Shown here piece by piece: positions 7,661-46,597 of a stretch of 64,000 bases of DNA. The stretch's first letter is position 1. The number at the start of each line of letters is the position of its first letter. Where the stretch lies: contig JAAYFS010000014.1 of assembly GCA_012728115.1 (NCBI GenBank), positions 2,279-66,278 of the forward strand. The letters are read 5' to 3'. The position numbers and the translations under genes were made by a program. The notes beneath the pieces were generated by a model that saw nothing but the letters and a program-made list of their open reading frames with translations, did not search any database and was not told the DNA's origin. This DNA is from Bacillota bacterium. GTDB lineage: Bacteria; Bacillota; Limnochordia; Darwinibacteriales; JAAYFS01.

Positions 7661-9145
7661 TTGATTTATCCGAGTATCGATCAGTTTATTGAATTAAGTC
7701 GAAATGCGAAGTTAGTACCTGTTGCTTTAGAAATGGATGGCGATTTGGAAACCCCGATCAGCTTGTTCATCAAGCTTGGGCAAAACAAAAACAGCTATAT
7801 CTTAGAAAGCGTGGAGGGTGGCCAGCATTGGGCTCGCTACTCCTACATCGGTCGCAATCCATTTCTAATTATTAAAGCAAGTGATAATGTAGTAAGCGTT
7901 TTAAATACCGAAACCAACACGATTACAAACAGACATGGAGATGTTCTAGAGATCATTAAAGAGATTATGCAGGAGTATAGGATTGCTAAACTAGCAAATC
8001 TACCAGATTTTTTTGGTGGGGCGGTCGGGTACTTTGCTTATGATGTAGTTCGAAACTATGAAAAACTAAAAAACTCAAAAGTCGATAATCTCAACATGCC
8101 TGATATCCATTTGCTTCTTACAAATGAAGTTATCGTATATGACCATGTTAAACAAAAAATCATTTTAATTGTTAATGTTCCACCTTCATGTACTCCGAAA
8201 GCCAGTTACCAAAAAGCGATCGAGAGGCTGCAAGAAATCAAAGCTGAGATCTTAACTGCTAAAGACGATGTTCAACGATCAAAAATTGCACCCAGGGACG
8301 GTGAGGTCGCTTGGAGTGCTAGTACAGAGAGTAAGGATAGCTTTATGCAAAAGGTAAGGCAGATTAAATCGCACATTGAAAATGGGGAAGCTTTGCAAGT
8401 TGTTTTATCACAACGACTTTCCTTGCAAACAGAAATAGACCCATTCAATGCTTACCGTGTTCTTCGCTCACTCAATCCTTCACCATACCTTTTTTTCATC
8501 AACTATGGTGAATATCAACTAGTTGGGGCATCTCCTGAATTATTGGTAAAAGTGACAGATGGATTAGTTGAAACATGTCCGATTGCAGGTACTCGTCCTC
8601 GTGGTAAGGATCCTAGTGAGGATCAAGCCTATGTTGAAGATTTGTTGAGTGACGAGAAAGAGTTGGCGGAACATTTGATGCTAGTAGATTTGGGACGAAA
8701 TGATATCGGTAAAGTTTCTGAATTTGGAACGGTTGAAACTAAGAACTTGATGCATGTAGAAAAGTATTCGCATGTGATGCACATCGTCACTAATGTAGTT
8801 GGCAAGCTAAAGAATGGAGCTACAATGTATGATGCTCTGAAGGCGTGCTTGCCTGCCGGTACAGTTTCTGGAGCGCCCAAGGTTCGGGCGATGGAAATTA
8901 TTAACGAATTAGAGACCGAAAAGCGTGGCGTCTATGCGGGTGCAGTGGGTTATCTTGGTTTCAACGGAAACATGGATCTTTGTATCACCATTCGCACCAT
9001 AGTGTTTAAAGAAAAAACAGCGTTTGTTCAAACTGGCGCTGGGATAGTCGCCGATTCCGATCCTGAAACCGAGTATGAAGAAACCTTACGGAAAGCAAGA
9101 GCCCTATTAGAAGCCGTTAGGCAAGCGGAGGAGGAACTGTCATGA
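7661..9145 (+). CDS. trpE: Anthranilate synthase component I
   Basis: AAGGAG RBS + TTG 7661; LESVEGG, LNPSPY, GASPE, PIAGTRPRG, EHLMLVDLGRND, PAGTVSGAPK. Confidence 0.95.
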   Translation: MIYPSIDQFIELSRNAKLVPVALEMDGDLETPISLFIKLGQNKNSYILESVEGGQHWARYSYIGRNPFLIIKASDNVVSVLNTETNTITNRHGDVLEIIKEIMQEYRIAKLANLPDFFGGAVGYFAYDVVRNYEKLKNSKVDNLNMPDIHLLLTNEVIVYDHVKQKIILIVNVPPSCTPKASYQKAIERLQEIKAEILTAKDDVQRSKIAPRDGEVAWSASTESKDSFMQKVRQIKSHIENGEALQVVLSQRLSLQTEIDPFNAYRVLRSLNPSPYLFFINYGEYQLVGASPELLVKVTDGLVETCPIAGTRPRGKDPSEDQAYVEDLLSDEKELAEHLMLVDLGRNDIGKVSEFGTVETKNLMHVEKYSHVMHIVTNVVGKLKNGATMYDALKACLPAGTVSGAPKVRAMEIINELETEKRGVYAGAVGYLGFNGNMDLCITIRTIVFKEKTAFVQTGAGIVADSDPETEYEETLRKARALLEAVRQAEEELS

Positions 9146-9735
9146 TCGTTATTATCGATAACTATGATTCATTTACGTACAATCTTTATCAATACTTTGG
9201 CGAGCTTGATCCGAATATTGCTGTTTTTCGTAACGATGAGATCACGATTCAGGAGTTAGAAAAATTGCCACTTAGCCATATCGTACTATCTTCTGGAGCG
9301 GGGTCGCCAGAAAACGCTGGTGTTTCTAGCCAGGTGGTAGCTACTTTTGCGGGTAAAGTTCCGATTCTAGGAATCGGTCTTGGCCACTTAGTAATTGCAA
9401 AACATTATGGAGCTCAAATAGTTCCCGCAAAAAGAATAGCGCATGGCAAAAGCATGAGCTTTAAGCACCAAGGAGAGCAGATCTTTCATGGGGTTAAGAA
9501 CCCACTAAAAGTTACCTGTTATCATTCGTTGATTGTTGAACCAGAATCGATTCCAGACGAGTTGAAGGTTCTGGCAATAAATAATGAAGCGGAAATAATG
9601 GCGATTCGTCATCAACAAGACTTGGTTTTTGGTCTTCAGTTTCATCCCGAAGCAATCGCGACGGAATGTGGTAAACAAGTATTACACAATTTCCTAAACC
9701 AAGAATTATTGGGAGGTGGAAGCTGTGTTGCCTGA
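9142..9735 (+). CDS. trpG: Anthranilate synthase component II (class I GATase fold), catalytic Cys absent
   Basis: IDNYDSFTYNL, YHSL and QFHPE motifs; nucleophile elbow reads GIGLGHL rather than GxCLGHQ. Confidence 0.92.
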   Translation: MIVIIDNYDSFTYNLYQYFGELDPNIAVFRNDEITIQELEKLPLSHIVLSSGAGSPENAGVSSQVVATFAGKVPILGIGLGHLVIAKHYGAQIVPAKRIAHGKSMSFKHQGEQIFHGVKNPLKVTCYHSLIVEPESIPDELKVLAINNEAEIMAIRHQQDLVFGLQFHPEAIATECGKQVLHNFLNQELLGGGSCVA

Positions 9736-10747
9736 GATCTTAAACAAATTAGTCAACAGAGAAGATCTAACTGAACTAGAAATGTTCAAGTTGATGAACC
9801 AGATTATGGACGGGGAATTAACACCAGCTCAGATTGGTGCGATCCTCATGGGTTTACGGATGAAGGGTGAAACAAGCGCTGAAATAACGGGAGGGGCTAG
9901 GGTGATGCGAGATAAAGCTGTGGCGATAAATACAGATGATCTCTATGCGATCGACACTTGTGGAACTGGTGGAGATGGCGCCCATACCTTTAATATTTCT
10001 ACGGCGGTAGCCTTGATCGCTGCCGCGGCTGGAGTGCCAGTATTTAAACATGGCAATCGGTCTGTGTCCAGTAAGTGCGGAAGTGCAGATGTCCTAGAAG
10101 AGCTAGGAATCAGAATCGATCTTTGCCCAGACAATGTGAAGGAATGTGTTCGCAATGTAAATATCGGGTTTTTGTTTGCCCCCAGGTTTCATAAAACAAT
10201 GGGAAATGTGGTCCAACCTCGGAGAGAGCTTGGAGTTAGAACAATTTTCAACGTTTTAGGACCTTTAACTAACCCTGCAAGGGTTAAGGGGCAAGTGCTC
10301 GGTGTATTCTCAGCTGATTTAACTGAAACCTTAGCTTCTGCTCTCAATGCGCTTGGTTGTGAAAGAGCGTTGGTTGTGCATGGATTAGACGGATTAGATG
10401 AAATTACGATCACCACCCAAACAAAAATTACTGAACTAAAGGATGGTAAGGTGGAAACGTATCTATTAGATCCGCTTCAGTTTGGAATAGAGTATGGACA
10501 CAAAGGCGAGCTAGTCGGCGGTGATGCAGTAGAAAACTCACGTATTATCACTAATATCTTGAATGGGGAAAAAGGAGCAAAGCGAGATATTGTGCTGTTA
10601 AATGCTGCCGCAGCTTTGTATGTTGGCAAGAAAGCATCAGATTTCAAAGAAGGTATTGAACTGGCTGCTGAGATCATCGACAGTGGTGCGGCTTTTCAGA
10701 CATTAAATAGATGGATCGAAGTATCACGGGAGCTGAGAGCGTCATGA
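9725..10747 (+). CDS. trpD: Anthranilate phosphoribosyltransferase
   Basis: DTCGTGGDG, FNIST, KHGNRSVSSKCGSADVLE, RTIFNVLGPL. Confidence 0.96.
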   Translation: MLPEILNKLVNREDLTELEMFKLMNQIMDGELTPAQIGAILMGLRMKGETSAEITGGARVMRDKAVAINTDDLYAIDTCGTGGDGAHTFNISTAVALIAAAAGVPVFKHGNRSVSSKCGSADVLEELGIRIDLCPDNVKECVRNVNIGFLFAPRFHKTMGNVVQPRRELGVRTIFNVLGPLTNPARVKGQVLGVFSADLTETLASALNALGCERALVVHGLDGLDEITITTQTKITELKDGKVETYLLDPLQFGIEYGHKGELVGGDAVENSRIITNILNGEKGAKRDIVLLNAAAALYVGKKASDFKEGIELAAEIIDSGAAFQTLNRWIEVSRELRAS

Positions 10748-11517
10748 TTCTAGAAAGAATAGTAAGAGACAGGAAAGAAGAAATTGGGGTATTGAAACAG
10801 AGTCAACCACTTGAGCAAATTATTGAATTTAAAGCTGGTCGGGATCTTAAGCAAGTCGTTAAACAAGCCAAAGGTTTGGGTATTATTGCCGAAGTTAAGA
10901 AGGCATCACCGTCCAAAGGATTAATCTGCGAAGCTTTTGATCCGTTGGCGATAGCTAAAGAGTACGAAGAACAGGGTGTAGCAGGTATTTCTGTTTTAAC
11001 CGAGCCTAAACACTTTCTTGGTAAAGATGAATATTTAACAGAGATTGCCAGTAACACCTCGATTCCAGTCTTACGCAAAGACTTTATTATCGATCCTTAT
11101 CAGGTTTTACAATCAAAGTTACTTGGGGCAGATTGTATTCTATTGATTGCGGCTGTGTTAGAGGATTCTGAACTGGTAAGTTTTCAGAAACTAGCAAAAG
11201 AACTTGAACTTCAGTGCTTGGTTGAAGTGCATAACAGAAAAGAGCTTGAAAGGGTACTAAAAACTGAAGCAAGCTTGATTGGAATTAATAATCGCGATCT
11301 TAATACCTTTAAGGTTGATTTGCAAACTACTTTGGAACTAGCACCCTTAATTCCAGAAGAGATTGTGGTAATCAGTGAAAGCGGTGTTCATACGAGAGAA
11401 GATATGCTGGTTCTTGAAGAAGCTGGGGTGGATGGAGTCTTAATTGGTGAGAGTTTGATGAAGGCTTCATCGATTCCGCTGAAGCTAAAAGAACTTCGGG
11501 GTGAGCTTGGTGGATAG
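10744..11517 (+). CDS. trpC: Indole-3-glycerol phosphate synthase
   Basis: IAEVKKASPSKG, ISVLTE, LRKDFIID, GINNRDL, SESG. Confidence 0.96.
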   Translation: MILERIVRDRKEEIGVLKQSQPLEQIIEFKAGRDLKQVVKQAKGLGIIAEVKKASPSKGLICEAFDPLAIAKEYEEQGVAGISVLTEPKHFLGKDEYLTEIASNTSIPVLRKDFIIDPYQVLQSKLLGADCILLIAAVLEDSELVSFQKLAKELELQCLVEVHNRKELERVLKTEASLIGINNRDLNTFKVDLQTTLELAPLIPEEIVVISESGVHTREDMLVLEEAGVDGVLIGESLMKASSIPLKLKELRGELGG

Positions 11518-12130
11518 AACCGTAAGGGTAAAGGTTTGCGGATTGACTCGAAAAACCGACATTGATTTTGTGAATGAACTTAAACCAGATTATGTTGGGT
11601 TTGTGTTTGCTCCAAGCAAGCGCCAGGTAAAACCAAAACAAGCGCGGCAAATGATCCTTGATTTAGAGCCATCGATTAAAAAGGTTGGAATCTTTGTTGA
11701 TGCACCGAAAGAGTTTGTTAAGGACGTTTCCGAGGAGTGTAGTCTTGATATTCTGCAATTTCATGGCAATGAAACAAACGAGTATTGGCAAGGATTGGCA
11801 AAGCCTGTTTGGAAGGCTTTGCGGATAAGAAGTAAAGAGGATCTTGCGCTCGTTAACTCGTTAAAAAATATTGATGCGATACTACTTGATTCACCGACGG
11901 CTGGCTCGGGGAAGACATTTGACTGGAGCGTAGGTTCGGGTCTGAAAAGCTTTCATCCACTAGTCTTGGCAGGCGGATTAAACGCAGAAAATGTTACTGA
12001 AGCAATCGCGATTTTTAAACCCTTCGCGGTGGATGTGAGTAGTGGTGTTGAAACGGATGGACTGAAGGATTATATCAAGATCAAACAATTTATCGAGAAT
12101 GTGAGGAGATTTTGTGAGTACGATGATTAG
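11501..12130 (+). CDS. trpF: Phosphoribosylanthranilate isomerase
   Basis: [30 protein letters not shown]. Confidence 0.96.
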
Positions 12131-13310
12131 AGAAAGCAGATTTGGAATGTTCGGCGGCCAATATGTCCCCGAAACCTTAATGAGTGCACTGACTGAATTA
12201 GAGATTGAGTATAAAAAGTGTTTAGAGGATCCAGAGTTTTGGGCTGAGTATCAGTACTATGTTCGCGAATATTCAGGTAGACCAACTCCTCTTTATTACG
12301 CTGAAAACCTAACCAAAGAACTTGGTGGCGGTAAGATCTATCTCAAACGTGAGGATCTTAATCATACAGGCGCTCATAAGATCAATAACGTAATCGGGCA
12401 AGTGCTTTTAGCTCAAAGGATGGGTAAAAAGCGAATCATAGCCGAAACGGGAGCTGGACAGCATGGAGTAGCTACAGCTACCATTTGTGCGATGATGAAT
12501 TTAGAATGCGAAATCTTTATGGGTGAAGAAGATGTAAAAAGGCAAGAATTAAACGTATTTCGAATGAAGTTATTAGGAGCGAAAGTGACTGCTGTTAGTT
12601 CTGGCACTAAGACTTTGAAAGATGCGACTAATGAAGCGATTAGGGATTGGGTTACTAATGTCGATGATACCTTTTACGTAATTGGTTCGGTGGTCGGACC
12701 GCATCCATATCCATCGATGGTCAGGGATTTTCAACGCATCATCGGAGATGAGGTAAAGGAACAGATTTTAGCTATTGAAGGGCGTTTACCTGATTATTTA
12801 GTAGCTTGCGTTGGTGGCGGAAGCAACGCAATGGGATTATTCTATCCTTTTATCAACGATACCGAAGTAAAACTTTGTGGTGTTGAAGCTGGTGGGCTAG
12901 GCTTAGATACTTCCAAACATGCTGCTACCATCAGTAAGGGTTCACCTGGTGTGATTCATGGAATGATGACTTATCTATTACAAGATACTGAAGGACAGAT
13001 CATACCTGTTCATTCAATTTCTGCTGGACTTGATTATCCAGGAGTTGGACCAGAACATGCTTACCTTTATCAAAAAGGAAGAGCTCAATACAACGCTATT
13101 ACCGACAGTGAAGCTTTGGAAGCTTTTCAATTCCTCTCAAGAATCGAGGGAATTATTCCTGCTTTAGAAAGTGCACATGCCATAGCCTATGCTAAGAAAC
13201 TTGCACCAACAACCAGTAAGGATGATTTGATCGTTGTGAATCTCTCTGGTCGGGGGGATAAAGATGTTTATACTGTGGCAGAAGCATTGAAAGAAGGTGG
13301 ACTAAGATGA
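12114..13310 (+). CDS. trpB: Tryptophan synthase beta chain
   Basis: [47 protein letters not shown]. Confidence 0.98.
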
Positions 13311-14101
13311 GAATCCAATCCGTATTTGAAAATCTACTTCATCAAGGAAAGAAAGCGTTAATACCATATATTACTGCGGGCGATCCGAGTATTGCTGCCA
13401 CCGAGGAACTTGTTATAGCAATGGATCAAGCTGGCGCGAATATTATCGAGCTTGGGGTACCGTACTCCGATCCATTAGCTGATGGGGTTGTTATTCAACG
13501 AGCGACTCAGCGCGCCCTCGAAGCGGGAACCAACTTGGAAAAGGTTTTTGAGTTAGTTAGATCCTTGAATGGGAAGATAAAAGCACCATTAGTGCTACTC
13601 GTGTACTTTAACCCAATCTATCAATACGGAATCAAAAACTTTATTGAAAAATGTGTGGCTGTTGGTGTCGCAGGTTTAGTAATCCCCGATCTTCCAATAG
13701 AAGAAAGGGAGGAAATTAGGAAGATTGTCGATAGCGGTAATTACCCACTTGATCTGATTCCACTAGTTGCCCCAACCTCCCGTGAACGGATCAAGAGGGT
13801 AGTAGACGAAGCGTCGGGGTTTGTTTATGCAGTCTCTTCCAAAGGGGTAACAGGTGTGAGAAAGAAGTTTTCTGAAGACCTGGAGGGTTTTATCGGACAA
13901 ATAAAAGCCGTAACCGATATCCCAGTCGCACTTGGATTTGGAATCGGAGATGTAGAAACGGTTAGTAAAATAAAAGATTATGTTGATGGAGTTATCATTG
14001 GTAGTGTGTTAGTAGAGATGATTGAAAAGGCTAGTACTCAGAACGAAGCAGTTGGGAGAATAGGAAATTTTATAAAAACTCTTCGGGAGGTACTCGATTA
14101 G
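13307..14101 (+). CDS. trpA: Tryptophan synthase alpha chain
   Basis: [32 protein letters not shown]. Confidence 0.97.
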
Positions 14102-14122
14102 TAGCTTAATGAAACGTAAAAC

Positions 14123-14181
14123 GGAAAAGAGGGAGAGAAGTGACCACAACGCGCCACTACTCTCCCTCTTTCCTGTTTTTT
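14123..14181. terminator. Bidirectional terminator between trpA and thrB
   Basis: GGAAAAGAGGGAGAG...CTCTCCCTCTTTCC stem with flanking A/T tracts between convergent genes. Confidence 0.75.
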
Positions 14182-14259
14182 CTCTTCTCGCTATTTTGTA
14201 ATCTCACATAAGGAATGCAAAAGTTTATCTGCAAAACTTAAAAAGGGCTATTATTTTCT

Positions 14260-15177
14260 TTATGAAAAAGAGTCAATAGTTTTCGCTCCGTTATTACAGA
14301 TCTTAGTACACACAATCTTTGCCTCTACTCCGAAACGTTTAAATGCCAGCCTCATTGCTTCACCAACGTTTTCGGGATCTTTCTCGCTCAAGGCCAGCAT
14401 GGTTGGACCAGCACCGCTTAGAACTGAAGCTATAGCTCCTGCTCGCTTAGCCGCTTGAATCACTTCTTGCAGACCAGGGATCAATGAAGAGCGATATTGC
14501 TGATGAAGCCTATCTTCGGTTGCCCAGGATAAGTGATGAAATTCTGATTTCATTAAAGCACCGACCAAACAAGCAACTCGGCTAATGTTGAAGACAACGT
14601 CTTTTAACGGTACTTCTTTTGGTAAACAAGAGCGAGAGGCCTTGGTTTTTAACTGAAAATCGGGAATAGCCAAGACAATTTGAAGTTCATTATCTGGATG
14701 AGCAGTAATGTACTTAACTGAGTTTTCTGCTAAACAGGATGCAACAAAACCCCCAAAAAAGGCGGGGGCGACATTATCAGGATGTCCCTCGAGTTTGGTT
14801 GCAATTTCCAATAACTCAACGATCGATAGAGGATTGCCAATAAGGTGATTAGCAGCTAACACGCCACCGACAATAGCAGCCGAGCTACTTCCTAAACCAC
14901 GCGATAAAGGAATCTCGTTATGTTGGATGATCCTTAGACCGCTCGGATACTTATTAGCTTTTTTAAATACAGCCATAGCTGCTCTAAAGACTAAATTACT
15001 CTTGTTAGTAGGTAATTCCCCTGCTCCTTCACCAGTGATCGTGATCCTTAGTCCTTGTTCAATTTCTTCCATTTCAAGATAATTAAATAGTTCGATAGCT
15101 AGACCGAGAGAATCAAATCCAGGACCAAGATTGGCGGATGTAGCTGGGACTCGATATTTAACTTTCAAAATTGTCAC
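14260..15177 (-). CDS. thrB: Homoserine kinase
   Basis: [38 protein letters not shown]. Confidence 0.97.
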
Positions 15178-16229
15178 CTCATCAGTTCTTCGACGATCGT
15201 TTCGTAGTGAGCGGGTACTTCCTTGATTCGATCACTGATGGCGATTGCTTGATCAGGATCTTTTAGACCATTACCCGTAAGCACACAAACGATGGAACTA
15301 CCTTCGGGGAAGTAGTTTTGATTAACTAACTTTATTACCCCTGCTATTGAAGCTGCAGAGGCAGGTTCAGCAAATATTCCTTCCGTACTAGCGAGTAACT
15401 TATAGGCTGCGAGGATTTCCTCATCCGTAACTGAATCAATCAAACCGCCTGATTGGTCTCTTGCTTCAACTGCTTTCTGCCAACTAGCTGGATTTCCGAT
15501 ACGAATAGCAGTAGCAATGGTTTCAGGGTTTTTAACAACTTTATTCCTCACTATTGGTGCAGATCCAGCTGCTTGGAAACCGAGCATTTTGGGCAGGTTC
15601 TTTGATAGATTCTTATTTTTGTATTCCAGAAAGCCTTTCCAATAAGCCGTGATATTACCTGCATTGCCGACAGGAATAGCAAGATAATCTGGCGCATCAC
15701 CTAATTGGTCGCAGACTTCAAAGGCTGCAGTTTTTTGCCCTTCGATTCGATACGGATTAATCGAATTGACAAGGGTGATCGGATGGTTTGTATTTATAAC
15801 TTTAACCATCTCCAAAGCATCATCAAAATTGCCATCGATTGCTAATACCCTAGCCCCATACGCTAGTGCTTGGGCTAGTTTCCCTAAAGCAACAGCATTT
15901 TGGGGCAAGAGCACGAAACATTTCATTCCAGCGCGGGCTGCATAGGCAGCAGCGGCTGCCGATGTGTTTCCCGTACTAGCGCAAACAATAGCTGAGGAGC
16001 CTTCTTCTAATGCCTTAGATACAGCCATTGTCATCCCGCGATCCTTAAAAGAACCTGTTGGGTTTTGCCCTTCAAATTTAAGATAGATGTTTAGTTTAGC
16101 ACCGATTTTTTCGGTTAAGCGGTTTGCTTTAAGTAGAAGAGTGTTACCTTCATTGAGAGTAACGATCGGTGTTTTTTCGCTGATAGGGAGAAATTCTTTG
16201 TATCTATTTATCAAACCAGCCCAACGCAT
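15174..16229 (-). CDS. thrC: Threonine synthase
   Basis: [38 protein letters not shown]. Confidence 0.97.
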
Positions 16230-16235
16230 TGGAAA

Positions 16236-17531: not shown

Positions 17532-18059
17532 TGCAAACACCTTTCTCTCCATATTTTCTCGATGATATTTCAGCTATTATACCATAAAAAGTATTGTGTT
17601 ACTATCAAAGGTTTATATTCGATTATAGCATGCTATTAATTCATACTCCCACTTGAATTTATGGATAGCTAGTAATGAAGACAACCTGGGATTGCATATC
17701 GATGAGGTATTGATCACCGATCATTACATTATCCTAGTACAAGGCTTTTACTTCATGTTCTATCCAATCAATTCTGTCAGTGTTTTATCATTCAGGGGTC
17801 TGTTTTAGAGGATAGAAAAATCAATATCTGATTATTTCTATACCAAAAGGCGTCTTTGTTTGGTTTTCCAAAAGAGACGCCTTTTGTTCGTCATAAAGGA
17901 ATAATCCTGAAGAAACAAAGGAAATTGAAACGATGAGGGATAACTATTCACTTAAGAGACAAATTACGAAGATCTATAATTATCGATCGGTTAGAAAAAT
18001 AACCAAGTTTTAGTGGTTGAGAATTTTTCGGATTGAACTTGAGTTTAGGAGGAACGCCA

Positions 18060-19007: not shown

Positions 19008-19032
19008 AGAAGTAAAGTAAAAGTACTTGCTG

Positions 19033-19064: not shown

Positions 19065-19089
19065 ATCGTAGATCAGGAGGTTTTTTGTA

Positions 19090-34256: not shown

Positions 34257-34260
34257 GTTC

Positions 34261-35505
34261 TTAGATCCAACCTCTTAAACTTAAAGCGGTTGAGATTCTT
34301 TCTAATGCAAGCATGTAAGCTCCGATCCGGAGATTCGTTTGATGTTTTTCACTAATTTCCCAAATATGTTTAAAGGCGTCAATGATCTGGATCTTTAGTT
34401 TTTCATTCACTTCTTCTAAACTCCAGTAATAGTTCATCAGGTTTTGGACCCATTCATAATAAGACACTATTACCCCACCAGAGTTTGCGAGAATATCAGG
34501 AATTACTGGGATACCCTTTTTTGCTAGGATTGAATCTGCATCGGGGGTAGTCGGTCCATTTGCTGCTTCAGCAACAATCTTCGCTTTGATAAATTCTGCA
34601 TTTTCCTTGGTTATTTGGTTTTCAAGAGCCGCTGGAATTAGGATGTCGCACTTGATAGCTAGTAAGTCTCCATTAGAAATCGGAATAGTACCTGGGAAAT
34701 TTCCTACCGAAGATGTTAATTCTTTGTGCTTTAATAAACTATGGATATTTAGTCCACTAGGATTGTAGACTCCACCAGTTGAGTCATTAACCGCTATAAT
34801 TTTTACTCCGAGCGATGAAAGAAGGGAGGCAGTATTGGCTCCTACATTTCCAAAACCTTGGATTACGGCAGTAGCTTCTTGTAAGTTAATATTTTTTCTT
34901 TTCGCAGCTTCGATAATTGTATAAACGCAACCTTGAGCGGTAGCGGTTTCGCGTCCAAGTGAACCCCCGATCGCAAGGGGCTTTCCAGTAATAACTCCTG
35001 GTGAGTTCACCTCACCTTGGATTTTATAATATTCATCCATCATCCAGGCCATTACCTGGCTATTTGTATACACATCAGGAGCAGGGATATCTTTTTTCTC
35101 CCCGATAAACTGAGAAATAGCGCGGATATAACCCCTGCTTAAACGTTCAATTTCACTAGGAGACATCTGCTTTGGATTACAGATTACCGCTCCCTTAGCA
35201 CCCCCATACGGCAATCCCACTACAGCACATTTTAGAGTCATCCAAATCGAGAGAGCCATTGTCTCATCCAATGTTACCTGCGGATGGAAGCGGATTCCTC
35301 CCTTTGTAGGACCGAGAACATCGGTGTGTTGTGCTCGAAAGCCTATAAATGTCTTGGTCTGTCCATTATCCATTATAACTGGAATAGATACAGTCAATAC
35401 TCGTTTAGGATAATGGAGGATTTCATACACATCGGGTGGCAGTCCTAGTTTGTCACAGGCTTCTTTCAAATTCTGCTGAGCGATAGCGAGGGGGTTAGTT
35501 TGCAT
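34261..35505 (-). CDS. gdhA: Glu/Leu/Phe/Val dehydrogenase, glutamate dehydrogenase
   Basis: GPTKGGIRFH, LPYGGAKG, DIPAPDV, ITGKP, GSLGR, QGFGNVG, AEAANGP, PDILAN. Confidence 0.9.
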   Translation of the reverse strand: MQTNPLAIAQQNLKEACDKLGLPPDVYEILHYPKRVLTVSIPVIMDNGQTKTFIGFRAQHTDVLGPTKGGIRFHPQVTLDETMALSIWMTLKCAVVGLPYGGAKGAVICNPKQMSPSEIERLSRGYIRAISQFIGEKKDIPAPDVYTNSQVMAWMMDEYYKIQGEVNSPGVITGKPLAIGGSLGRETATAQGCVYTIIEAAKRKNINLQEATAVIQGFGNVGANTASLLSSLGVKIIAVNDSTGGVYNPSGLNIHSLLKHKELTSSVGNFPGTIPISNGDLLAIKCDILIPAALENQITKENAEFIKAKIVAEAANGPTTPDADSILAKKGIPVIPDILANSGGVIVSYYEWVQNLMNYYWSLEEVNEKLKIQIIDAFKHIWEISEKHQTNLRIGAYMLALERISTALSLRGWI

Positions 35506-35687
35506 TATTTCACCTCTTCAGAAAGTGGTCTAAGTACTCAAACTTTATTATATATTAAATAAGTTTGTTCTTTCAACGATTTTGTTTTGTGCACTTGGGC
35601 ACATACGCAAAATCCCTAAAAAACAAGGAAATTAAATACTTCTCGCCGAAAATGAATATTATTCCTGTTAGTGGATAGAGGTGCGAT

Positions 35688-37332: not shown

Positions 37333-37365
37333 CAATAAATGTGGAATCATAGTGGAGGTGGCAAC

Positions 37366-38838: not shown

Positions 38839-38850
38839 AAGGGTGAGGAA

Positions 38851-39492
38851 ATGAAAATCGAGGATCTAAAAATCTATGATGTTTCAATGGAGATTCATCC
38901 AGGTATGAGTGTTTGGAAGAATTATCCACATAAGCAGCCTAAGTTCTCAGTTGTGCGGGACTTCTCTAAAGGTGATGTTGCCTACGAAACTGATATAACC
39001 TTCAACCTTCATACTGGTACCCATATCGATGCACCACTGCATTTTGTTGAAGGTGGCGACACTTTTGAGTGTATTCCACTGGAAAACCTGGTTACGCGAG
39101 TGCGTGTTCTAGAATTAATAGAAGGAATTGAAGATCGGATCACCAAGCAGGATTTGGAAAAGTTTGAGATCCAAGCGGGAGAGTTTGTGCTTTTGAAGAC
39201 TCGGAATTCTTTTGGAGAACCTTGGAGCGAGGATTTTGTCTTTATTGAAAAAACTGCGGCTAGTTATCTTAAAGATATCGGGATCAGAGGAGTTGGAATC
39301 GATGCTTTAGGCGTAGAAAGAGATCAGCCAGAACACGAAACACATAAAGAGTTACTAGGTAGCAAGATTATAGTTATCGAAGGTCTAAGGCTACAGGATG
39401 TACCAGAAGGGGAATATTTGATGGTTGCTGCTCCTTTAAAAGTTATCGGTACTGAAGCTGCCCCAGCACGGGTGTTTTTATTAGCTGGTTAA
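38851..39492 (+). CDS. Cyclase family protein (kynurenine formamidase-like)
   Basis: HTGTHIDAPLH, GIDALG, IEGL, APARV. Confidence 0.9.
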   Translation: MKIEDLKIYDVSMEIHPGMSVWKNYPHKQPKFSVVRDFSKGDVAYETDITFNLHTGTHIDAPLHFVEGGDTFECIPLENLVTRVRVLELIEGIEDRITKQDLEKFEIQAGEFVLLKTRNSFGEPWSEDFVFIEKTAASYLKDIGIRGVGIDALGVERDQPEHETHKELLGSKIIVIEGLRLQDVPEGEYLMVAAPLKVIGTEAAPARVFLLAG

Positions 39493-39569
39493 AAGATGAT
39501 AATAATAATCTTTACTATTCCCTGGAAGTGGTATATACTGTGAGTATCTGCAACTCTAGGAGGGATAAG

Positions 39570-40007
39570 ATGCTTGAGGTAGGAATGAAAGCACCAGAGT
39601 TGGATTTTAATGTGACAGGAAAAGGTGTTGTTAAGTTGCCCGATTTTAAGGGAAAAAAGGTGGTTTTGTATTTCTATCCGAAGGATAATACTTCAGGATG
39701 TACTCAGGAAGCCTGTAGTTTTCGAGATTACCATGATGAGATTCTGGCACGCGGCGCGGTGATTATCGGTGTAAGCCCAGATAGTGACGAATCGCATCAA
39801 CGTTTTCGAGAAAAACATAATCTTCCTTTCTACTTAGTTAGCGACACAGACCATGAGTTAGCTACCGCATTTGGAGCATGGAGTTCAGGAAAGATGCACC
39901 GGTCCACTTTTATCATTGATGAAGCTGGGGAGATAATAAAGGTTTTTACCAAAGTTAATACAGCTCAACACGGCAAAGAGGTACTTGAATTTCTTGAAGG
40001 ATTATAA
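39570..40007 (+). CDS. bcp: BCP/PrxQ peroxiredoxin
   Basis: LYFYPKDNTSGCTQEACSFRD, RSTFIID. Confidence 0.92.
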   Translation: MLEVGMKAPELDFNVTGKGVVKLPDFKGKKVVLYFYPKDNTSGCTQEACSFRDYHDEILARGAVIIGVSPDSDESHQRFREKHNLPFYLVSDTDHELATAFGAWSSGKMHRSTFIIDEAGEIIKVFTKVNTAQHGKEVLEFLEGL

Positions 40008-40027
40008 AAGTAAGCATTAGAAACGTA

Positions 40028-40055
40028 AAAGACGGGGTGAATATGCCCCGTCTTT
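40028..40055. terminator. Bidirectional terminator
   Basis: AAAGACGGGG/CCCCGTCTTT between convergent genes. Confidence 0.75.
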
Positions 40056-40066
40056 CTTGCTAGCAA

Positions 40067-40930
40067 CTACTTCTTTCGAACAGGAATCCAGACTTCGCTA
40101 TAAGCATAACCTTCTTTTTCTTGATCCATTTTTGTAAAGGAAAATGAAAATGCATCGACAATTTCATAATCCGCTGAAGGAAGCCACTCGGAGTAGATAC
40201 TAGCCATTGTATTTTGTAGCGTTTGGGGGAAAGGCCCTTCGTTTGGGAAAACTGCCCAAGTATAGGCAGGGATAGGCACCTTTTCTAACTGGTCGCTAAC
40301 CTCTTCCGTGGTAGTTAACACCCCTATCAAATGAGTTAGATAGCCTTCATCTTTTAAGAAATTTGCTTCATGATCATAAGAAGCATTTACTATTTCATAC
40401 GGTTCAATGTTTTGCAAAGAACGCATTTCTTTTCTTTGTTTGTCAGTGATGCTTTGGGCTAGTTTTACAATCTCTTGGTTTACCCCTTCAAATTGCATCG
40501 GAACCCGTCTACTTACACCCACCAGATTAAATGCTGGTTTGTCCACGATCCTAAATTCCATATTAATTCCTCCTTTTATAGTGATAGCAAAATATAGCTT
40601 AGGAAATGACTTACTAATACCAGTTTTCAATACTTCCGAAGGTAAGTACCCACTCCATTTTCGAAATGCTCGTGAAAAACCATCTACTGTTTGGTATCCA
40701 TACTTAAGAGCCACATCGGTTACTCTTTCGCCATTTAAAAGCTCCTCACTTGCTCTAGAGAGCCTCCTATTCTTGATATATTCACCGAGCGTAATCCCCG
40801 ACAGATAAAAGAAGATTTGCTTGAAATGATAATCGGAAACCCCAGCAATATTTGAAATATCTTCAAAGGATAATTCTCCCGTCAAATGTTCTTCAATATA
40901 CTCGATAACGTGATTAAGATCTCGTAACAT
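40067..40930 (-). CDS. AraC HTH + GyrI-like effector-binding domain regulator
   Basis: IEYIEEHL...SDYHFKQIF...YGYQTVDGFSRAF; C-terminal IPAYTWAVF, IYSEWLP, SEVWIPV. Confidence 0.92.
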   Translation of the reverse strand: MLRDLNHVIEYIEEHLTGELSFEDISNIAGVSDYHFKQIFFYLSGITLGEYIKNRRLSRASEELLNGERVTDVALKYGYQTVDGFSRAFRKWSGYLPSEVLKTGISKSFPKLYFAITIKGGINMEFRIVDKPAFNLVGVSRRVPMQFEGVNQEIVKLAQSITDKQRKEMRSLQNIEPYEIVNASYDHEANFLKDEGYLTHLIGVLTTTEEVSDQLEKVPIPAYTWAVFPNEGPFPQTLQNTMASIYSEWLPSADYEIVDAFSFSFTKMDQEKEGYAYSEVWIPVRKK

Positions 40931-41086
40931 TTTGATCCCCTTTCGCTCTTGTATCCATCATACCATTTATGTTCTAAAGATACTCGACTTTTTAGTTAGA
41001 TGTTTAGTCGAGTATTTGGACGCTGAGGCAATGAATTTTTATTCATAAATGTTGTTTATTTATTAAAACATATCATGAAATTTAAC

Positions 41087-41115
41087 TTGACAATCACTGA
41101 TGTTCACTATAGAAT
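41087..41115 (+). promoter_or_regulatory. sigmaA promoter of the pyr operon
   Basis: TTGACA-17 bp-TAGAAT. Confidence 0.85.
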
Positions 41116-41123
41116 TTAAGATA

Positions 41124-41287
41124 AGAAAAGTCCAGAGAGGCTTTCTGTAAAAACGTTTTAGAGATTGTCAAAAAAATGAACGGGCCTTTAATTCAATCCT
41201 GTGAGATTGGGAAGGACGTCTACACAAGGGCATGCCTTTTCGTGTGCAATTAGTAGGCTTCTACCAATCGAGGTAGAAGCCTTTTAT
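41124..41287 (+). promoter_or_regulatory. PyrR-type attenuator leader
   Basis: AGTCCAGAGAGGCT (41129-41142), second box CTTTAATTCAATCCTGTGAGATTGGGAAGG (about 41186-41215), terminator AGGCTTCTACC/GGTAGAAGCCT + T (41255-41287). Confidence 0.85.
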
Positions 41288-41342
41288 AAAATGATTGCCC
41301 TTGGAGACAGTTTCTTGGAAGGTCCCTATCGGAGGGATTCTG

Positions 41343-42251
41343 ATGTATTCATTAACAACAACAAAGATGTGTTCAAAGAGTTTTATTGAAACGTTGCTAC
41401 AACGGGCACAGCTTTTTGCCGATGGTAAAGAGCCATGGAAGTGTAACGGAACGGTAGTCAACGTTTTTTTTGAACCTAGTACTAGAACAAACCTTTCCTT
41501 TCAAATGGCTGCTCATCGTCTTGGTCTGCATGTTTTAAACTTTGATTGCACCAATTCAAGTCTCAAAAAAGGGGAGTCTATGCTCGATACTTTGCAAACA
41601 ATTGAAGCATTGGGAGCAAATATTGCTGTAATCCGAAGTTCTGAAGATTGGCCAGCTATGGAACTTGATAAAAAAGTGAACATCTCGTTAGTTAACGCTG
41701 GTTCAGGTGTTAAGGATCATCCAACTCAGGCACTATTGGATGCTTTAACAATCAAACAACACTTTGGTTACTTCCAAGGATTAACGGTGACGATTGTGGG
41801 AGACATTCTCCATAGCAGAGTGGCTCGCTCCAATATAGATGTTTTGACAAAATTGGGTGCAAAAATTCAGTTAGCGGGTCCAGAACATTACAAAGCTGAC
41901 GATTTGGCTACTTTTGTACCTTGGGTTGATTTTGATGAGGCAATTGAAGAATCCGATGTGGTGATGATGCTACGTGTTCAACATGAGCGTCATTCAGAAA
42001 AATTCCCGTATGAAATTGGCGAGTATCATCAAAAATTTGGTTTAACCCAAGAGCGAGTAAGAAGAATGAAACCAAATGCGATTATGATGCATCCTGGTCC
42101 AGTTAATCGGGGTGTGGAAATCGCTGACGAAGTTCTAGAAGACGGTCGTTGTAAAATATTACAACAGGTTCGAAATGGAGTTGCTGTGCGGATGGCAGTA
42201 TTAGAAGTATGTTTATTGGGGGAGCGCTATGGGCACCTTGTTTCTGCGTAA
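41343..42251 (+). CDS. pyrB: Aspartate carbamoyltransferase catalytic subunit
   Basis: FFEPSTRT, KGESMLDT, HPTQALLD, GDILHSRVARS, HPGP; GGAGGG RBS + ATG 41343. Confidence 0.96.
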   Translation: MYSLTTTKMCSKSFIETLLQRAQLFADGKEPWKCNGTVVNVFFEPSTRTNLSFQMAAHRLGLHVLNFDCTNSSLKKGESMLDTLQTIEALGANIAVIRSSEDWPAMELDKKVNISLVNAGSGVKDHPTQALLDALTIKQHFGYFQGLTVTIVGDILHSRVARSNIDVLTKLGAKIQLAGPEHYKADDLATFVPWVDFDEAIEESDVVMMLRVQHERHSEKFPYEIGEYHQKFGLTQERVRRMKPNAIMMHPGPVNRGVEIADEVLEDGRCKILQQVRNGVAVRMAVLEVCLLGERYGHLVSA

Positions 42252-43506
42252 TGGATCTGTTTTTCGAAATGGACGGATCAGAAAAGAAGATATATTGATC
42301 AACGACGGAATTATTGTTGCTTTTAATGATGACGCTAGGCACAGACTAAGCAATGAGAAAGAAGTGAAAATTCTAGATTTAGATGGCCTATTAGTTTCGC
42401 ATGGTTTTATCGATCTCCATGTTCATCTGCGGGAGCCTGGTGGCGAGAGCAAGGAGACTATTTTAACGGGTACTAAAGCGGCAGCAAGAGGCGGTTTTAC
42501 TTCGGTTTTTGCCATGCCAAATACCACACCTAGCTTTGATTCGGTTGAGGTAATCCAAGATTTCTTTAGTAGATGTGCTAAGGACGCAGCCGTTAAGGTT
42601 CACCCGATTGCAAGCCTCAGCATGGGTCGCAAAGGTAAGCAAGTGGTTGATTATCAAGCATTAAAAGAACTTGGGATAAATCATTTTTCTGATGATGGGG
42701 ATCCGTTATCGGATGAGATTATCAAAGAAGCAATGGATTTACTAAAAAGTACGGGTGGCGTGTTAATTAACCATCTTGAAGATAAGAGCATAACACAAGG
42801 TGGAATGTTTGCAGATCGGATTCCCGCTGAAAGCGAATATTTAATGCTCGAGCGAGATTTGAAGATGGTTTCGGAAACAGGGTGTGCGTATCATGCAGCA
42901 CACCTTAGTTGTATCGAATCTGTTGAGCTGATTAAAAAAGCTAAGCAAAAGGGTTTGCCAGTAACTGCGGAAGTTACCCCGCATCATTTAGTATTAACTA
43001 TCGATGATATTGGTTTCCCCAAAGGAAACTTCCAGATGAAACCGCCATTAAGAACCAAGAATGATCAAGTAGCTTTAATAAATGGCCTTAAAACGGGAGT
43101 AATCGATGCGATCGCGACCGACCATGCTCCTCATGGCGAAGAGAAGAAAAAGGAGTTTTCTAGTAACTCCCCCTTTGGGATAACGGGATTGGAAACTGCT
43201 TTTCCAATTCTTTATACGAAATTGGTACTATCAGGAAAACTGACCTTAGTTCAGTTGCTGGAGAGTTTAACTGACAAACCAGCTCAAATAGGCCGAATAA
43301 ATGGGGAATTGAAGGTAGGAGAACCTGCGGATCTTGTAGTGATAGACTTGAAATCTGAAAGAACGGTTAAAGAAGAAGATTTCCTTAGTAAGGGTAAGAA
43401 CTCACCCTTCATTGGTTTAACATTGACGGGTTGGCCCTTGCTAACTTTGGTAAATGGCGAGGTGAAGTATGATGAAGGTGTTGATACTCGGATCTGGTCC
43501 AATTGA
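42229..43506 (+). CDS. pyrC: Dihydroorotase (class I)
   Basis: DLHVHLREPG, AMPNT, FSDDG, AEVTPHH, KPPLR, ATDHAPH. Confidence 0.95.
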   Translation: MGTLFLRNGSVFRNGRIRKEDILINDGIIVAFNDDARHRLSNEKEVKILDLDGLLVSHGFIDLHVHLREPGGESKETILTGTKAAARGGFTSVFAMPNTTPSFDSVEVIQDFFSRCAKDAAVKVHPIASLSMGRKGKQVVDYQALKELGINHFSDDGDPLSDEIIKEAMDLLKSTGGVLINHLEDKSITQGGMFADRIPAESEYLMLERDLKMVSETGCAYHAAHLSCIESVELIKKAKQKGLPVTAEVTPHHLVLTIDDIGFPKGNFQMKPPLRTKNDQVALINGLKTGVIDAIATDHAPHGEEKKKEFSSNSPFGITGLETAFPILYTKLVLSGKLTLVQLLESLTDKPAQIGRINGELKVGEPADLVVIDLKSERTVKEEDFLSKGKNSPFIGLTLTGWPLLTLVNGEVKYDEGVDTRIWSN

Positions 43507-46500
43507 AATAGGGCAAGCGGCAGAATTTGATTATGCGGGAACACAAGCTTGTCAAGCCTTGCTGGAAGAGGGTGTGGAAGTAGTTTTATTAAACAGTAAT
43601 CCAGCGACGATTATGACGGACCCGAAAATGGCTGGAAGGGTATATATTGAACCGCTGACCATCGATGTGGTGAGAAAGATCATTCGCCTAGAAAAACCCG
43701 ATGGCATCTTAGCTACAACAGGTGGGCAAACAGGCTTGAACCTTGCCCGTGAGTTAGCTGAGGCTGGTGTGTTAGAACAAGAAGGTGTAAAGATTCTAGG
43801 TACTGATATAACAGCGATTCAGCGTGGAGAAGACCGCAGTGAGTTTCGTAAGTTAATGCAGGAACTAGGCCAACCGATTCCCGAAAGCACGATCGTTACC
43901 AAAGTAGAAGAGGCGATTGCTTTTGCTGAAAACATTGGCTTTCCTGTGGTAGTTCGCCCAGCTTTTACTCTTGGCGGCTCAGGTGGAGGTGTAGTTGAGA
44001 ATATCGATGAGTTAAAGGAACGGGTAAGGATCGGTTTGCAATTAAGCCCGATCAAACAAGTCCTTCTTGAACAGAGTATCGCTGGAATGCGCGAGGTTGA
44101 ATACGAAGTATTACGTGATAGTGAAGGTAATACCTTGATAGTTTGTGAGATGGAGAATATCGATCCTGTAGGAGTTCATACAGGGGATAGCATAGTGGTT
44201 GCACCAGCATTAACTTTAAGCAACCAAGAAAAGCAGCTTTTGGAACTAGCAGCACTGAAAATTGTTGAATCCTTGAATGTTGTTGGAAGTTGTAATGTGC
44301 AATTTGCCCTCGGCCGCAATTTAGATTACTACGTGATTGAAGTTAACCCGCGCGTCAGCCGTTCTTCAGCTTTAGCGTCAAAAGCAACGGGATATCCGAT
44401 CGCCAGAGTCGCAGCTAAGATTGCGATCGGGAAAACTTTGATTGAGCAAGATGCATTTAAGAGACCAAATTTAGATTATGTGGTCACTAAGATTCCGCGC
44501 TGGCCATTTGACAAATTCCCAACCGCTAATCGTTTACTAGGTACTCAAATGAAGGCAACGGGTGAAGTAATGGCGATTGGGCGAACCTTTACCGAATCAT
44601 TACAAAAAGCGATCCGTTCCTTGGAACTGGATAATATTTCTTTACTTCATCCCGAAGCACGCTTTTTAAGTGAAGAAGAACTTATTAAACGTCTCATTAG
44701 ACCTGATGATATGCGGATTCATTTGCTTGCTGAATTCTTGCGGCGGGGTGGAAGTGTAGAAGAACTCGTAAACCTTACCAACATTCATCCATTTTTTCTC
44801 CATGAGATCGATCGCTTAGTAAAGTTTTTTTTAGAGCTTTGTTCCCAAGAAGAACTAAATCGTGATCTACTAAGAGAAGCGAAAAGATTGGGCTTTAGTG
44901 ATGAGATCATCGGTGAAGCCGTGGGGTTAGAAGTGAAAACAATAAGAGATTTCCGAGTCAAATGGGGAATTAGACCAAGTTTTTGTAAGGTTGATGCGGG
45001 TATATTGCCTTATTACTACTCAACTTACAATAAAGAGAATGAAGTTGTATTAGATCGAAGCAAACAAACGGTGATAGTGTTAGGAAGTGGTCCTATTAGG
45101 ATCGGACAAGGAATTGAATTCGATTTTTCCACTGTTCATGCTGCTTGGACTATTAGGGACAAAGGTTATGCCGCGGTGATAATTAACAACAACCCTGAAA
45201 CAGTGTCTACTGATTACTTCACATCCGATCGTTTATATTTCGAACCTTTAGTTGAGGAAGACGTTTGGGAAGTTATCCAATTTGAAAACCCAGAGGGTGT
45301 ACTTGTTCAATTTGGTGGACAAACAGCAATTAACCTGGTACGTTTTCTAGAAAATGAACAAATTGCAATCAAGGGAACTACCGCTGAGAATACTTTCGGT
45401 ATGGAAGATCGGAAACGTTTTGATAAAGCGATGGAAACGCTTGAAATTCCGCGCCCAGCAGGATATACAGCAGATACTATCGATGAAGCTTTTAAAATTG
45501 CCGAAAAGATCAACTATCCAGTTGTTGTGCGACCTTCCTTTGTACTTGGGGGAAGGGGAATGGAAGTTGTCGGAAATCAAGCGAGTTTAAGAGAATACTT
45601 AACTGGGCTGAGGATTACACAAGAGGCACCACTTTTAATCGATAGTTATATTGCTGGGCTTGAGGTGGAGCTTGATGCAATTAGTGATGGAGAAGATGTG
45701 TTTATCCCTGGCGTGATGGAACATTTAGAGCGTGCAGGGGTTCATTCAGGTGACTCCATTGCGGTATTTCCTAGCCAGAACCTATCAGCGGATACTTTAG
45801 CTTTGATTGCGGACTATACCAAGCGCATCGCAAACTATTTTCAAGTGAAAGGATTCTTAAATATCCAATTCGTTATCGCTAACAATACTGTATATGTGCT
45901 GGAAGTTAATCCACGGTCATCACGTACTATTCCATTTTTGAGCAAAGTTACAGGAATTTCATTAGCCGAACTAGCAACTAGAGTGGTTTTAGGCGAAAAA
46001 TTGTCAGAACTAGGTTATGTTGGACTTAGACAATTTACTGACGAGATTATTTCAGTGAAGGTACCTGTCTTTTCTTTTGCCAAACTACTGGATACGGAGA
46101 TCAACCTTGGACCAGAAATGAAGTCTACTGGTGAAGTAATGGGACGAGCTAAGAATCTTGCTCAAGCTTTGTATAAAGGTTTTATCGCAGCCAAAGTTCC
46201 AGTCAATTACCATGGGAAAGCATTAGTTACTGTAGCTGATAAAGACAAAGCAGAGATCGTTGAGTTGGCAAGAGCTCTTGATCGCCAAGGTTTTGATATT
46301 TATGCTACCGAAGGAACGTGTAAAACGCTTCAAGCAGCTGGAATTACCTGTAAGCAGGTTGTTAAATTGCAGGAAGGGTCAACTATCTTAGATTTAATCC
46401 AACAAGGGGAAGTGAATTTGGTGATCAACACCATCACGCATGGTAAGCAACCGCAACGTGATGGATTTAAAATTCGAAGAGCAGCTGTTGAAAGTGGGGT

Positions 46501-46597
46501 TTTATGTTTTACATCCTTGGATACAGCCAGAGCGTACTTAGATGTTGTTGCTGACCGAGATTTATGGTTAGAACCGATTGTTTCTGAGAGGAGATAA
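43469..46597 (+). CDS. carB: Carbamoyl-phosphate synthase large subunit
   Basis: GSGPIEIGQAAEFDY, two ATP-grasp units (RPAFTLGG, GVHTGDS, EVNPRVSRSS; RPSFVLGG, GVHSGDS, EVNPRSSRT), C-terminal MGS-like domain. Confidence 0.96.
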   Translation: MMKVLILGSGPIEIGQAAEFDYAGTQACQALLEEGVEVVLLNSNPATIMTDPKMAGRVYIEPLTIDVVRKIIRLEKPDGILATTGGQTGLNLARELAEAGVLEQEGVKILGTDITAIQRGEDRSEFRKLMQELGQPIPESTIVTKVEEAIAFAENIGFPVVVRPAFTLGGSGGGVVENIDELKERVRIGLQLSPIKQVLLEQSIAGMREVEYEVLRDSEGNTLIVCEMENIDPVGVHTGDSIVVAPALTLSNQEKQLLELAALKIVESLNVVGSCNVQFALGRNLDYYVIEVNPRVSRSSALASKATGYPIARVAAKIAIGKTLIEQDAFKRPNLDYVVTKIPRWPFDKFPTANRLLGTQMKATGEVMAIGRTFTESLQKAIRSLELDNISLLHPEARFLSEEELIKRLIRPDDMRIHLLAEFLRRGGSVEELVNLTNIHPFFLHEIDRLVKFFLELCSQEELNRDLLREAKRLGFSDEIIGEAVGLEVKTIRDFRVKWGIRPSFCKVDAGILPYYYSTYNKENEVVLDRSKQTVIVLGSGPIRIGQGIEFDFSTVHAAWTIRDKGYAAVIINNNPETVSTDYFTSDRLYFEPLVEEDVWEVIQFENPEGVLVQFGGQTAINLVRFLENEQIAIKGTTAENTFGMEDRKRFDKAMETLEIPRPAGYTADTIDEAFKIAEKINYPVVVRPSFVLGGRGMEVVGNQASLREYLTGLRITQEAPLLIDSYIAGLEVELDAISDGEDVFIPGVMEHLERAGVHSGDSIAVFPSQNLSADTLALIADYTKRIANYFQVKGFLNIQFVIANNTVYVLEVNPRSSRTIPFLSKVTGISLAELATRVVLGEKLSELGYVGLRQFTDEIISVKVPVFSFAKLLDTEINLGPEMKSTGEVMGRAKNLAQALYKGFIAAKVPVNYHGKALVTVADKDKAEIVELARALDRQGFDIYATEGTCKTLQAAGITCKQVVKLQEGSTILDLIQQGEVNLVINTITHGKQPQRDGFKIRRAAVESGVLCFTSLDTARAYLDVVADRDLWLEPIVSERR

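Follow-up and report, generated by a model that had tools for sequence, protein, structure and literature searches.

Dead or missing glutaminase modules in seven biosynthetic enzymes of a Limnochordia bacterium point to free ammonia as their nitrogen source

This study concerns a 64,000-nucleotide stretch of DNA (hereafter the window, contig C66 of the assembly) from the 1.95-Mb draft genome of a bacterium, in which the nearest protein relatives of the window are named Limnochordia or Firmicutes metagenome-assembled genomes (MAGs). The window carries a tryptophan (trp) operon in which the glutamine amidotransferase subunit, TrpG, has a dead active site, and a pyrimidine (pyr) operon in which the large subunit of carbamoyl-phosphate synthetase (CPS), CarB, has no small-subunit partner, CarA. 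The two loci belong to a wider pattern: as judged from alignments and profile matches, glutaminase modules are dead or missing in seven biosynthetic enzymes of this genome, and every synthase part is kept. We consider it likely that most amidotransferases of the lineage have lost the ability to hydrolyse glutamine, and that the synthases run on free NH3 from an ammonium-rich digester. Relatives are designated below by G handles, and comparisons across the order draw on 41 of its species.

The trp operon is complete (trpE-G-D-C-F-B-A, 7622-14101, plus strand). Its first gene, trpE (7622..9145), encodes anthranilate synthase component I, an intact synthase partner (TIGR00564, 585.5 bits against a cut-off of 517.7), and trpD, trpC, trpF, trpB and trpA make up the remainder (9716..14101). 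All of the genes pass an NCBIfam cut-off except trpF, whose best score (193.8 bits against 215) lies just under the cut-offs of all its equivalog models. The second gene, trpG (9142..9735), encodes a class I glutamine amidotransferase of 197 amino acids that belongs to the TIGR00566 trpG_papA family (215.7 bits; cut-off 121.05). In the alignment, the nucleophile elbow reads PILGIGLGHL in place of the canonical PILGICLGHQ, such that the catalytic cysteine of the G-x-C-x-G motif is glycine (codon GGT, 9376..9378) and the glutamine after Gly-His is leucine (GHQ to GHL), and the oxyanion strand reads SSGAG rather than SPGPG. The His-Pro-Glu motif is retained in the window protein (QFHPEA); the corresponding position in G008, a member of the same clade, reads QFCPGS.

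These substitutions are rare among TrpG proteins. Cys...Gln is found in 113 of 121 homologues, Gly...Leu in five, and three match neither pattern. The five Gly...Leu proteins form a single clade at 62-99% identity and have in common all three active-site changes as well as a C-terminal tail, which is LLGGGSCVA in the window. Sequencing error in TrpG can be ruled out, because four assemblies of independent origin have the identical TrpG. Within the dead clade, at 62-69% identity, nonsynonymous divergence (dN) is 0.20-0.32 while synonymous sites (dS) are saturated; a proper dN/dS ratio is therefore not computable, and it can be stated only that dN is well below dS. Because of this disparity, the dead TrpG appears to be kept by purifying selection, and the reason for its retention is most likely a structural partnership with TrpE. 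Two routes by which the protein could have regained a nucleophile were considered and rejected: selenocysteine or another form of recoding, since the codons at the Cys positions are ordinary Gly or Ser codons, and the cysteine of the C-terminal tail, since this residue is Gly in G013.

The tail has features of its own. Across the clade it reads (E/N)L(L/I)GGGSCVA and overlaps the start of trpD (9700-9735 in the window), and the fused TrpG-TrpD model NF011201 is the best NCBIfam match for both TrpG and TrpD. It may be what is left of the linker of an earlier fusion protein. In one assembly of the same organism, at 2x coverage (ENA ERZ2647963 NODE_662, L090), the trpE call is too short and trpD is broken into three open reading frames (ORFs), which are probably assembly errors.

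The pyr operon is of the Bacillus type (pyrB-pyrC-carB-pyrK-pyrD-pyrF-pyrE, 41295-49505, plus strand). It comprises pyrB for aspartate carbamoyltransferase (41295..42251; NF002032, 346.9 bits, cut-off 263), pyrC for dihydroorotase (42229..43506; TIGR00857, 367 bits), carB (43469..46597), and pyrK (46601-47344), pyrD (47299-48252), pyrF and pyrE, which together occupy 46601..49505. The junction sequence leaves no room for carA or a carA remnant, because pyrC and the start of carB overlap. Genome-wide, no CarA was found with either PF00988 (the CarA N-domain) or CarA-type PF00117, and the control genomes were positive in 14 of 14 cases. The order pyrB-pyrC-carB-pyrK-pyrD without carA recurs in five other genomes of the order, with CarBs 61-66% identical to that of the window. 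Canonical carA-carB pairs, where present in the order, are located in an arginine cluster and are 49-56% identical to the window CarB.

The orphan CarB has both ATP-grasp sites (NF003671, 1372 bits), and all 25 residues checked are conserved, including those of catalysis, the ATP-grasp folds and the tunnel gate (C232/A251/A314). When five CarBs from pyr operons without carA were aligned with six CarA-linked CarBs of the same order and E. coli (Ec) CarB, 38 columns separated the orphan from the CarA-linked proteins, 30 of which fall within E. coli residues 1-553 (binomial P = 5e-4). This N-terminal half is the one that bears the CarA contacts in the E. coli structure. Among these columns are D258, Y261 and R265, which lie in the helix APALTLSNQEKQLLE of the window protein (44201..44245; Ec 251-265) as D258N, Y261K and R265E (GAA at 44243-44245); position 265 is Glu in all five orphans. 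Also among them are a nine-residue deletion relative to Ec 336-344 (at 44438..44467) and, where the oligomerisation domain ends, the absence of the TCAAEF motif (Ec 531-536; at 44984..45022). D258, Y261, R265, the 336-344 loop and TCAAEF presumably touch CarA or line the tunnel wall. In the work of Kim and Raushel (2004), which is among the references of PMC6245113, Arg265 is reportedly one of three residues that were mutated to perforate the wall of the ammonia tunnel.

The rarity of R265E was gauged against 80 CarB loci taken from among the matches listed (generic Bacillota and others, 49-59% identity). Twelve of these were set aside, 11 of which had matched the homologous helix of the second CarB half and one of which had matched nothing; in the unrelated background CarBs where the helix was captured, among the matches listed, the residue is Arg in 68 of 68. 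Because the 25 checked residues are conserved while features conserved in CarA-partnered CarBs are lost, the orphan CarB looks like an active enzyme that is no longer built for small-subunit docking. Both of the lesions that the initial annotation had described, an inactive TrpG and a carA-less CarB with an eroded interface, are thus borne out. A third CarB type, also without an adjacent carA, was observed in larger relatives (L031 in G001:C104 and L036 in G017:C93). It differs at the discriminating columns in other ways (R265Q, D258P/K, Y261Q, with altered 337-349 and 527-536 segments), and may be a second, independent carA-less CarB subfamily.

To extend these observations to the genome, all open frames were called and screened by motifs, NCBIfam models and E. 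coli K-12 reference proteins. Only three proteins match PF00117, namely the dead TrpG, PyrG and a PuuD-like hydrolase. The seven affected modules have been inactivated or lost through three genetic routes: nucleophile substitution (TrpG, PurL and GlmS), in-frame domain truncation (GuaA) and clean deletion (carA, hisH and pdxT). The corresponding synthase parts, which are TrpE, CarB, the ATP-pyrophosphatase (ATP-PPase) domain of GuaA, the PurL synthetase, HisF, PdxS and the GlmS isomerase, are full length and in intact operons.

GuaA retains only profile positions 1-77 of 188 of its glutamine amidotransferase (GATase) domain, about 75 residues, with LGIGVDC at the Cys position; the complete N-terminal domain with Cys-His-Glu that characterizes glutamine-hydrolysing GuaA (NF000848) is lacking, and the ATP-pyrophosphatase and dimerisation domains are complete (TIGR00884, 491 bits against a cut-off of 339). 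PurL is of the fused large type. Its GATase domain reads LGIGEGFH and GGSSMGG where G017 and G019 have LGICNGFQ and GGFSAGD, so that the catalytic cysteine (C1135 in E. coli) is replaced by glycine. GlmS matches TIGR01135 over its full length with two SIS domains (529 bits against 418), and its glutaminase domain has Cys1 changed to Ser (MSGIIGY), R73T, D123V and two deletions. The N-domain of GlmS is 29-36% identical to those of relatives, as compared with 42-46% for the isomerase domain.

The two remaining losses are deletions. The his operon (hisG-D-B-A-F-IE) is without hisH and has no room for it at the hisB-hisA junction, and no HisH match was found genome-wide; HisF is present in the operon (E = 9e-62 to E. 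coli HisF). In G017 and G019, whose HisF proteins are about 70% identical to that of the present genome, an intact hisH follows hisB. For vitamin B6, PdxS is present (362 bits), the gene 3′ of pdxS is unrelated, and no PdxT was found genome-wide by PF01174 (the SNO family).

Two side observations concern the histidine genes. On contig C35 (291-3046), hisA sits between hisB and hisF, the position occupied by hisH in G017 and G019 (L100/L101), in whose his operon no hisA was seen; the operon has therefore been rearranged as well as reduced. Separately, HisH-HisF-like pairs with an intact Cys-His-Glu triad, 38-42% identical to his-operon HisF, occur away from other his genes in three relatives (L097-L099; G008:C74, G011:C41 and G002:C49). 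These may be WbuY/WbuZ-type sugar amidation pairs, whose glutaminase has been kept alongside a dead TrpG and a dead GuaA.

With a draft of 66 contigs that is 95.8% complete, one scenario is that the missing genes reside on unbinned contigs and that the substitutions are sequencing errors. We regard an artefact of this kind as very improbable, because the gaps left by carA, hisH and pdxT lie inside operons that are contiguous, the same TrpG protein recurs in independent assemblies, and the same states are found again in relatives that are 97-99% complete.

CarA is present in 7 of the 41 species of the order. The larger genomes (2.3-4.2 Mb: G001, G004, G007, G010, G017 and G019) have canonical TrpG and CarA and keep HisH, PdxT, PurL-Cys and GlmS-Cys where the genes are present; GuaA is canonical in five of the six, the gene in G019 being cut by a contig end. 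Those five are also the only genomes with a canonical GuaA; of 29 relatives, at least 22 have a truncated or dead one. The decay of GuaA is graded, from a full-length protein with Cys to Gly (G013), through a partial deletion (G002) and an otherwise degenerate form (G021), to truncation in about 20 others. When a large database was searched with the N-terminal stub of GuaA, nearly all matches were GuaAs of full length, and so the search gives little information on how far the truncation has spread. Of 14 genomes, 12 have PdxS but no PdxT. In the GlmS of G005, C1S, R73A and D123A arose separately, on an otherwise canonical background, and the GlmS of G021 consists of the isomerase half only. 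The losses are thus repeated and independent across the small-genome families, and they have always hit the glutaminase module, which justifies the term convergent that the initial annotation had applied on the basis of two loci.

A different way to read the same distribution is reductive decay toward auxotrophy, in which tryptophan, histidine, nucleobases, vitamin B6 and amino sugars would be imported and the synthase genes would simply not yet have decayed. The genome is small, in many relatives of family f4 the entire trp operon is gone, as are CarB and PurL, and many amino-acid auxotrophies have been published for related digester Limnochordia (PMC12663870). Decay of this kind would not be expected to be so selective. 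In 7 of 7 affected pathways the damage is on the glutaminase module and never on the synthase partner, and everything else in the trp, pyr and his operons scores at or near curated cut-offs. Moreover, the dead TrpG and truncated GuaA stay open frames across lineages that are only 55-69% identical, with dN well below the saturated dS, and the truncated GuaA is retained in about 20 species. We therefore think incipient auxotrophy unlikely, and favour a shift of these enzymes from glutamine to free ammonia.

Such a shift does not extend to every glutamine-dependent enzyme. The glutaminase site of PurF is intact (a propeptide followed by CGVFGV), as is that of PyrG (GICLGMQ and QFHPE); GatA is intact (636 bits), and two tandem glnA genes and glnS are present. 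NadE is a 250-amino-acid single-domain protein of the NH3 type. The audit found no AsnA, AsnB, glutaminase domain of glutamate synthase (GOGAT), CobQ/CobB-type domain, AmtB or PII in the genome. The initial annotation had suggested that glutamine is bypassed as nitrogen donor possibly across the whole genome, a suggestion to be abandoned if the other amidotransferases were all intact and active carA and trpG/pabA paralogues existed. The audit gave the opposite: there is no carA, there is no second TrpG/PabA paralogue, and the other amidotransferases are not all intact. The suggestion holds for GuaA, PurL and GlmS, which are dead, for hisH and pdxT, which are deleted, and for NadE; it fails for PurF, PyrG and GatA and for the two glnA genes, and so the bypass is extensive rather than complete.

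The initial annotation had also pointed to a glutamate dehydrogenase (GDH) gene between the two loci. The gene, gdhA, is indeed located there (34261..35505, minus strand; NF040817, 524 bits; NF041398, 465 bits), and its product would provide low-affinity ammonia assimilation; the 524 bits, to GdhA_Arch, are under that model's cut-off of 750. The significance attached to its location does not hold up, since gdhA has no operonic link to either locus, its neighbours are xylose genes, zwf, an M3 peptidase gene and mnmA, and its position is incidental.

Glutamine or another amide donor might still be used if an unrecognised glutaminase acted in trans, either a PuuD-like hydrolase or, in GlmS, the Ser1 nucleophile. 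A PuuD-like peptidase-C26 hydrolase of 233 amino acids is encoded at a contig end (C10:84821-85583), with an intact Cys-His-Glu triad (AICRGMQ and QWHPE), and homologues are found in most relatives. There is also precedent of a general kind, in that a single TrpG/PabA serves two synthases in B. subtilis, and Ntn (N-terminal nucleophile) hydrolases with a serine nucleophile exist. We know of no C26 hydrolase that docks to these synthases, however. CarB has lost the residues conserved in CarA-partnered CarBs, GuaA and PurL have dead domains of their own in the docking position, and GlmS is also without Arg73 and Asp123, which bind glutamine. A glutaminase in trans is thus improbable, in our estimation marginally more so than incipient auxotrophy.

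Under the reading that we prefer, in which free ammonia has replaced glutamine hydrolysis, tryptophan, histidine, nucleotides, vitamin B6 and the cell-wall sugar would most likely be built directly from free ammonia. When ammonium is high, synthase subunits of E. coli, Salmonella and Bacillus use NH3 in vitro. Free NH3 at high concentration is accepted by the synthase halves of anthranilate synthase, CPS, GMP synthetase, imidazole glycerol phosphate (IGP) synthase, pyridoxal phosphate (PLP) synthase and formylglycinamidine ribonucleotide (FGAM) synthetase (PMC4655335, PMC9312489). At 0.2-0.3 M ammonium and digester pH, NH3 would diffuse into the cell without an ammonium transporter (Amt) and saturate the synthase sites, each synthase taking its NH3 from solvent. 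Selection on the glutaminase halves would then lapse, or even reverse, because one ATP is spent at glutamine synthetase (GS) for each glutamine amide. The putative CarA-docking surface of the orphan CarB has been remodelled by R265E and two loop deletions, which probably gives solvent access to the ammonia tunnel, and TrpG would be retained as a structural partner of TrpE. Glutamate would be supplied by GDH, and GS would be retained solely to provide glutamine to PurF, PyrG, GatCAB and protein synthesis. For each amide nitrogen the cell would save one ATP, and its genome would be smaller.

The available information on habitat directly supports the digester alternative of the ammonia-rich, digester- or gut-like environment that the initial annotation had proposed. 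One assembly that encodes the identical TrpG, ERZ18327520, derives from a full-scale agricultural biogas plant. Total ammonia nitrogen (TAN) in that plant was 2.8-4.3 g/L (about 0.2-0.3 M) with free ammonia at 65-158 mg/L, and its most abundant organism was a Limnochordia MAG (PMC10608942). Uncultured digester Limnochordia have repeatedly been described as ammonia-tolerant; the published analysis of their genomes is silent on amidotransferases, and assumes glutamine and glutamate as nitrogen donors (PMC12663870).

Several points weigh against this interpretation. Ammonia use by these enzymes is something that we infer from the state of their genes. PurF, PyrG and GatA are still glutamine-dependent and two glnA genes persist, so that glutamine is still made and the saving is partial. 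The least secure step is GlmS, because the E. coli enzyme is reported not to use free ammonia, and Ser1 of the present protein could in principle still be an Ntn nucleophile. PurL lies in two pieces, at the ends of contigs C7 and C26. The habitat evidence comes from one of the four assemblies that share the TrpG protein and not from the window's own sample. Finally, in a draft of this completeness Amt, PII or a stray GATase could have escaped detection.

There are several known systems with which the present case can be compared. Nearest in physiology are laboratory mutants that high ammonium rescues. Such mutants without a glutaminase subunit (trpG and carA in E. coli and Salmonella, hisH in Klebsiella and pdxT in B. 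subtilis) grow or show activity at high ammonium; the enzymes are the same, and the synthase subunit alone uses NH3. Those are single lesions, engineered or selected, whereas the seven described here are natural, fixed and conserved in the lineage. In vertebrate mitochondrial CPS1, the nearest known case for any single enzyme, a CPS likewise gave up glutamine for free ammonia, through a Cys to Ser change, and the ammonia is proposed to take another way in that avoids the former glutaminase site (PMC4655335). CPS1 keeps its dead glutaminase domain fused and needs N-acetylglutamate, whereas the CarB of the window is a bacterial pyr-operon enzyme whose small subunit has been deleted, with no small-subunit sequence in the genome, and whose surface has been remodelled. 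Single-domain NadE, AsnA and the ATP-PPase subunit of two-subunit archaeal GMP synthetase also take amide nitrogen directly from NH3 without a glutaminase (PMC9312489). These are old, separate classes, in contrast to the canonical enzymes found here, which were converted recently and have left remnants in the form of the dead TrpG, the GATase stub of GuaA and the dead domains of PurL and GlmS. The closest ecological parallel is Tepidanaerobacter acetatoxydans, an ammonia-tolerant syntrophic acetate oxidiser from digesters that has no ammonium transporters and relies on a low-affinity GDH, features interpreted as adaptation to high ammonia (PMC4374699). That study addressed uptake and primary assimilation (no Amt and no GS) and is silent on amidotransferases. 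Unlike T. acetatoxydans, the bacterium described here has kept GS, and what it has stripped are the glutaminase modules.

Literature searches did not turn up any account of glutaminase modules lost in a coordinated way across a genome. The chemistry of each single step is already known, while the syndrome and several of the enzyme forms seen here in nature are not. Textbooks use glutamine amidotransferases to illustrate ammonia channelling, and free-living cells are generally assumed to need the glutaminase halves. With seven modules stripped by three routes, and graded intermediates in relatives, the lineage offers a natural experiment on when channelling stops paying. An implication for an abundant and uncultured group of biogas-reactor organisms is the physiological prediction that high ammonium is needed for growth, and the affected genes could serve as a genomic marker set for ammonia adaptation. 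Candidate enzymes for study include those with ammonia tunnels opened to solvent, such as the orphan CarB with R265E, and GlmS, for the question of whether it works on free ammonia. There is also a practical consequence, in that automated annotation calls all of these proteins glutamine-hydrolysing, and metabolic models of such genomes would be wrong.

A bolder proposal, which we offer tentatively and hold to be somewhat less probable than its negation, is that the lineage is an obligate ammoniaphile, that is, a free-living lineage that needs tens to hundreds of millimolar ammonium, with seven essential nitrogen-transfer steps operating on bulk NH3, among them that of GlmS, an enzyme regarded as strictly glutamine-dependent. 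If this were true, it would help to explain why the dominant digester Limnochordia resist cultivation. It would also mean that natural synthases optimised for free ammonia exist, in the form of a stand-alone CarB with an opened tunnel, an NH3-dependent GlmS and an NH3-dependent PurL.

Finally, we note two genes that relate to the nitrogen metabolism and gene neighbourhoods described above. An ORF on the plus strand of contig C12, starting at 55195 (536 amino acids), encodes a glutamate-synthase-like FMN-domain protein with a hydrophobic N-terminus; it has neither a glutaminase domain nor a nearby GltD partner, and it matches E. coli GltB weakly (E = 2e-11). In the window, between gdhA and the pyr operon, an arylformamidase-like gene of the kynurenine formamidase family, which scores below the cut-off (38851-39492), adjoins zwf and a peroxiredoxin gene.

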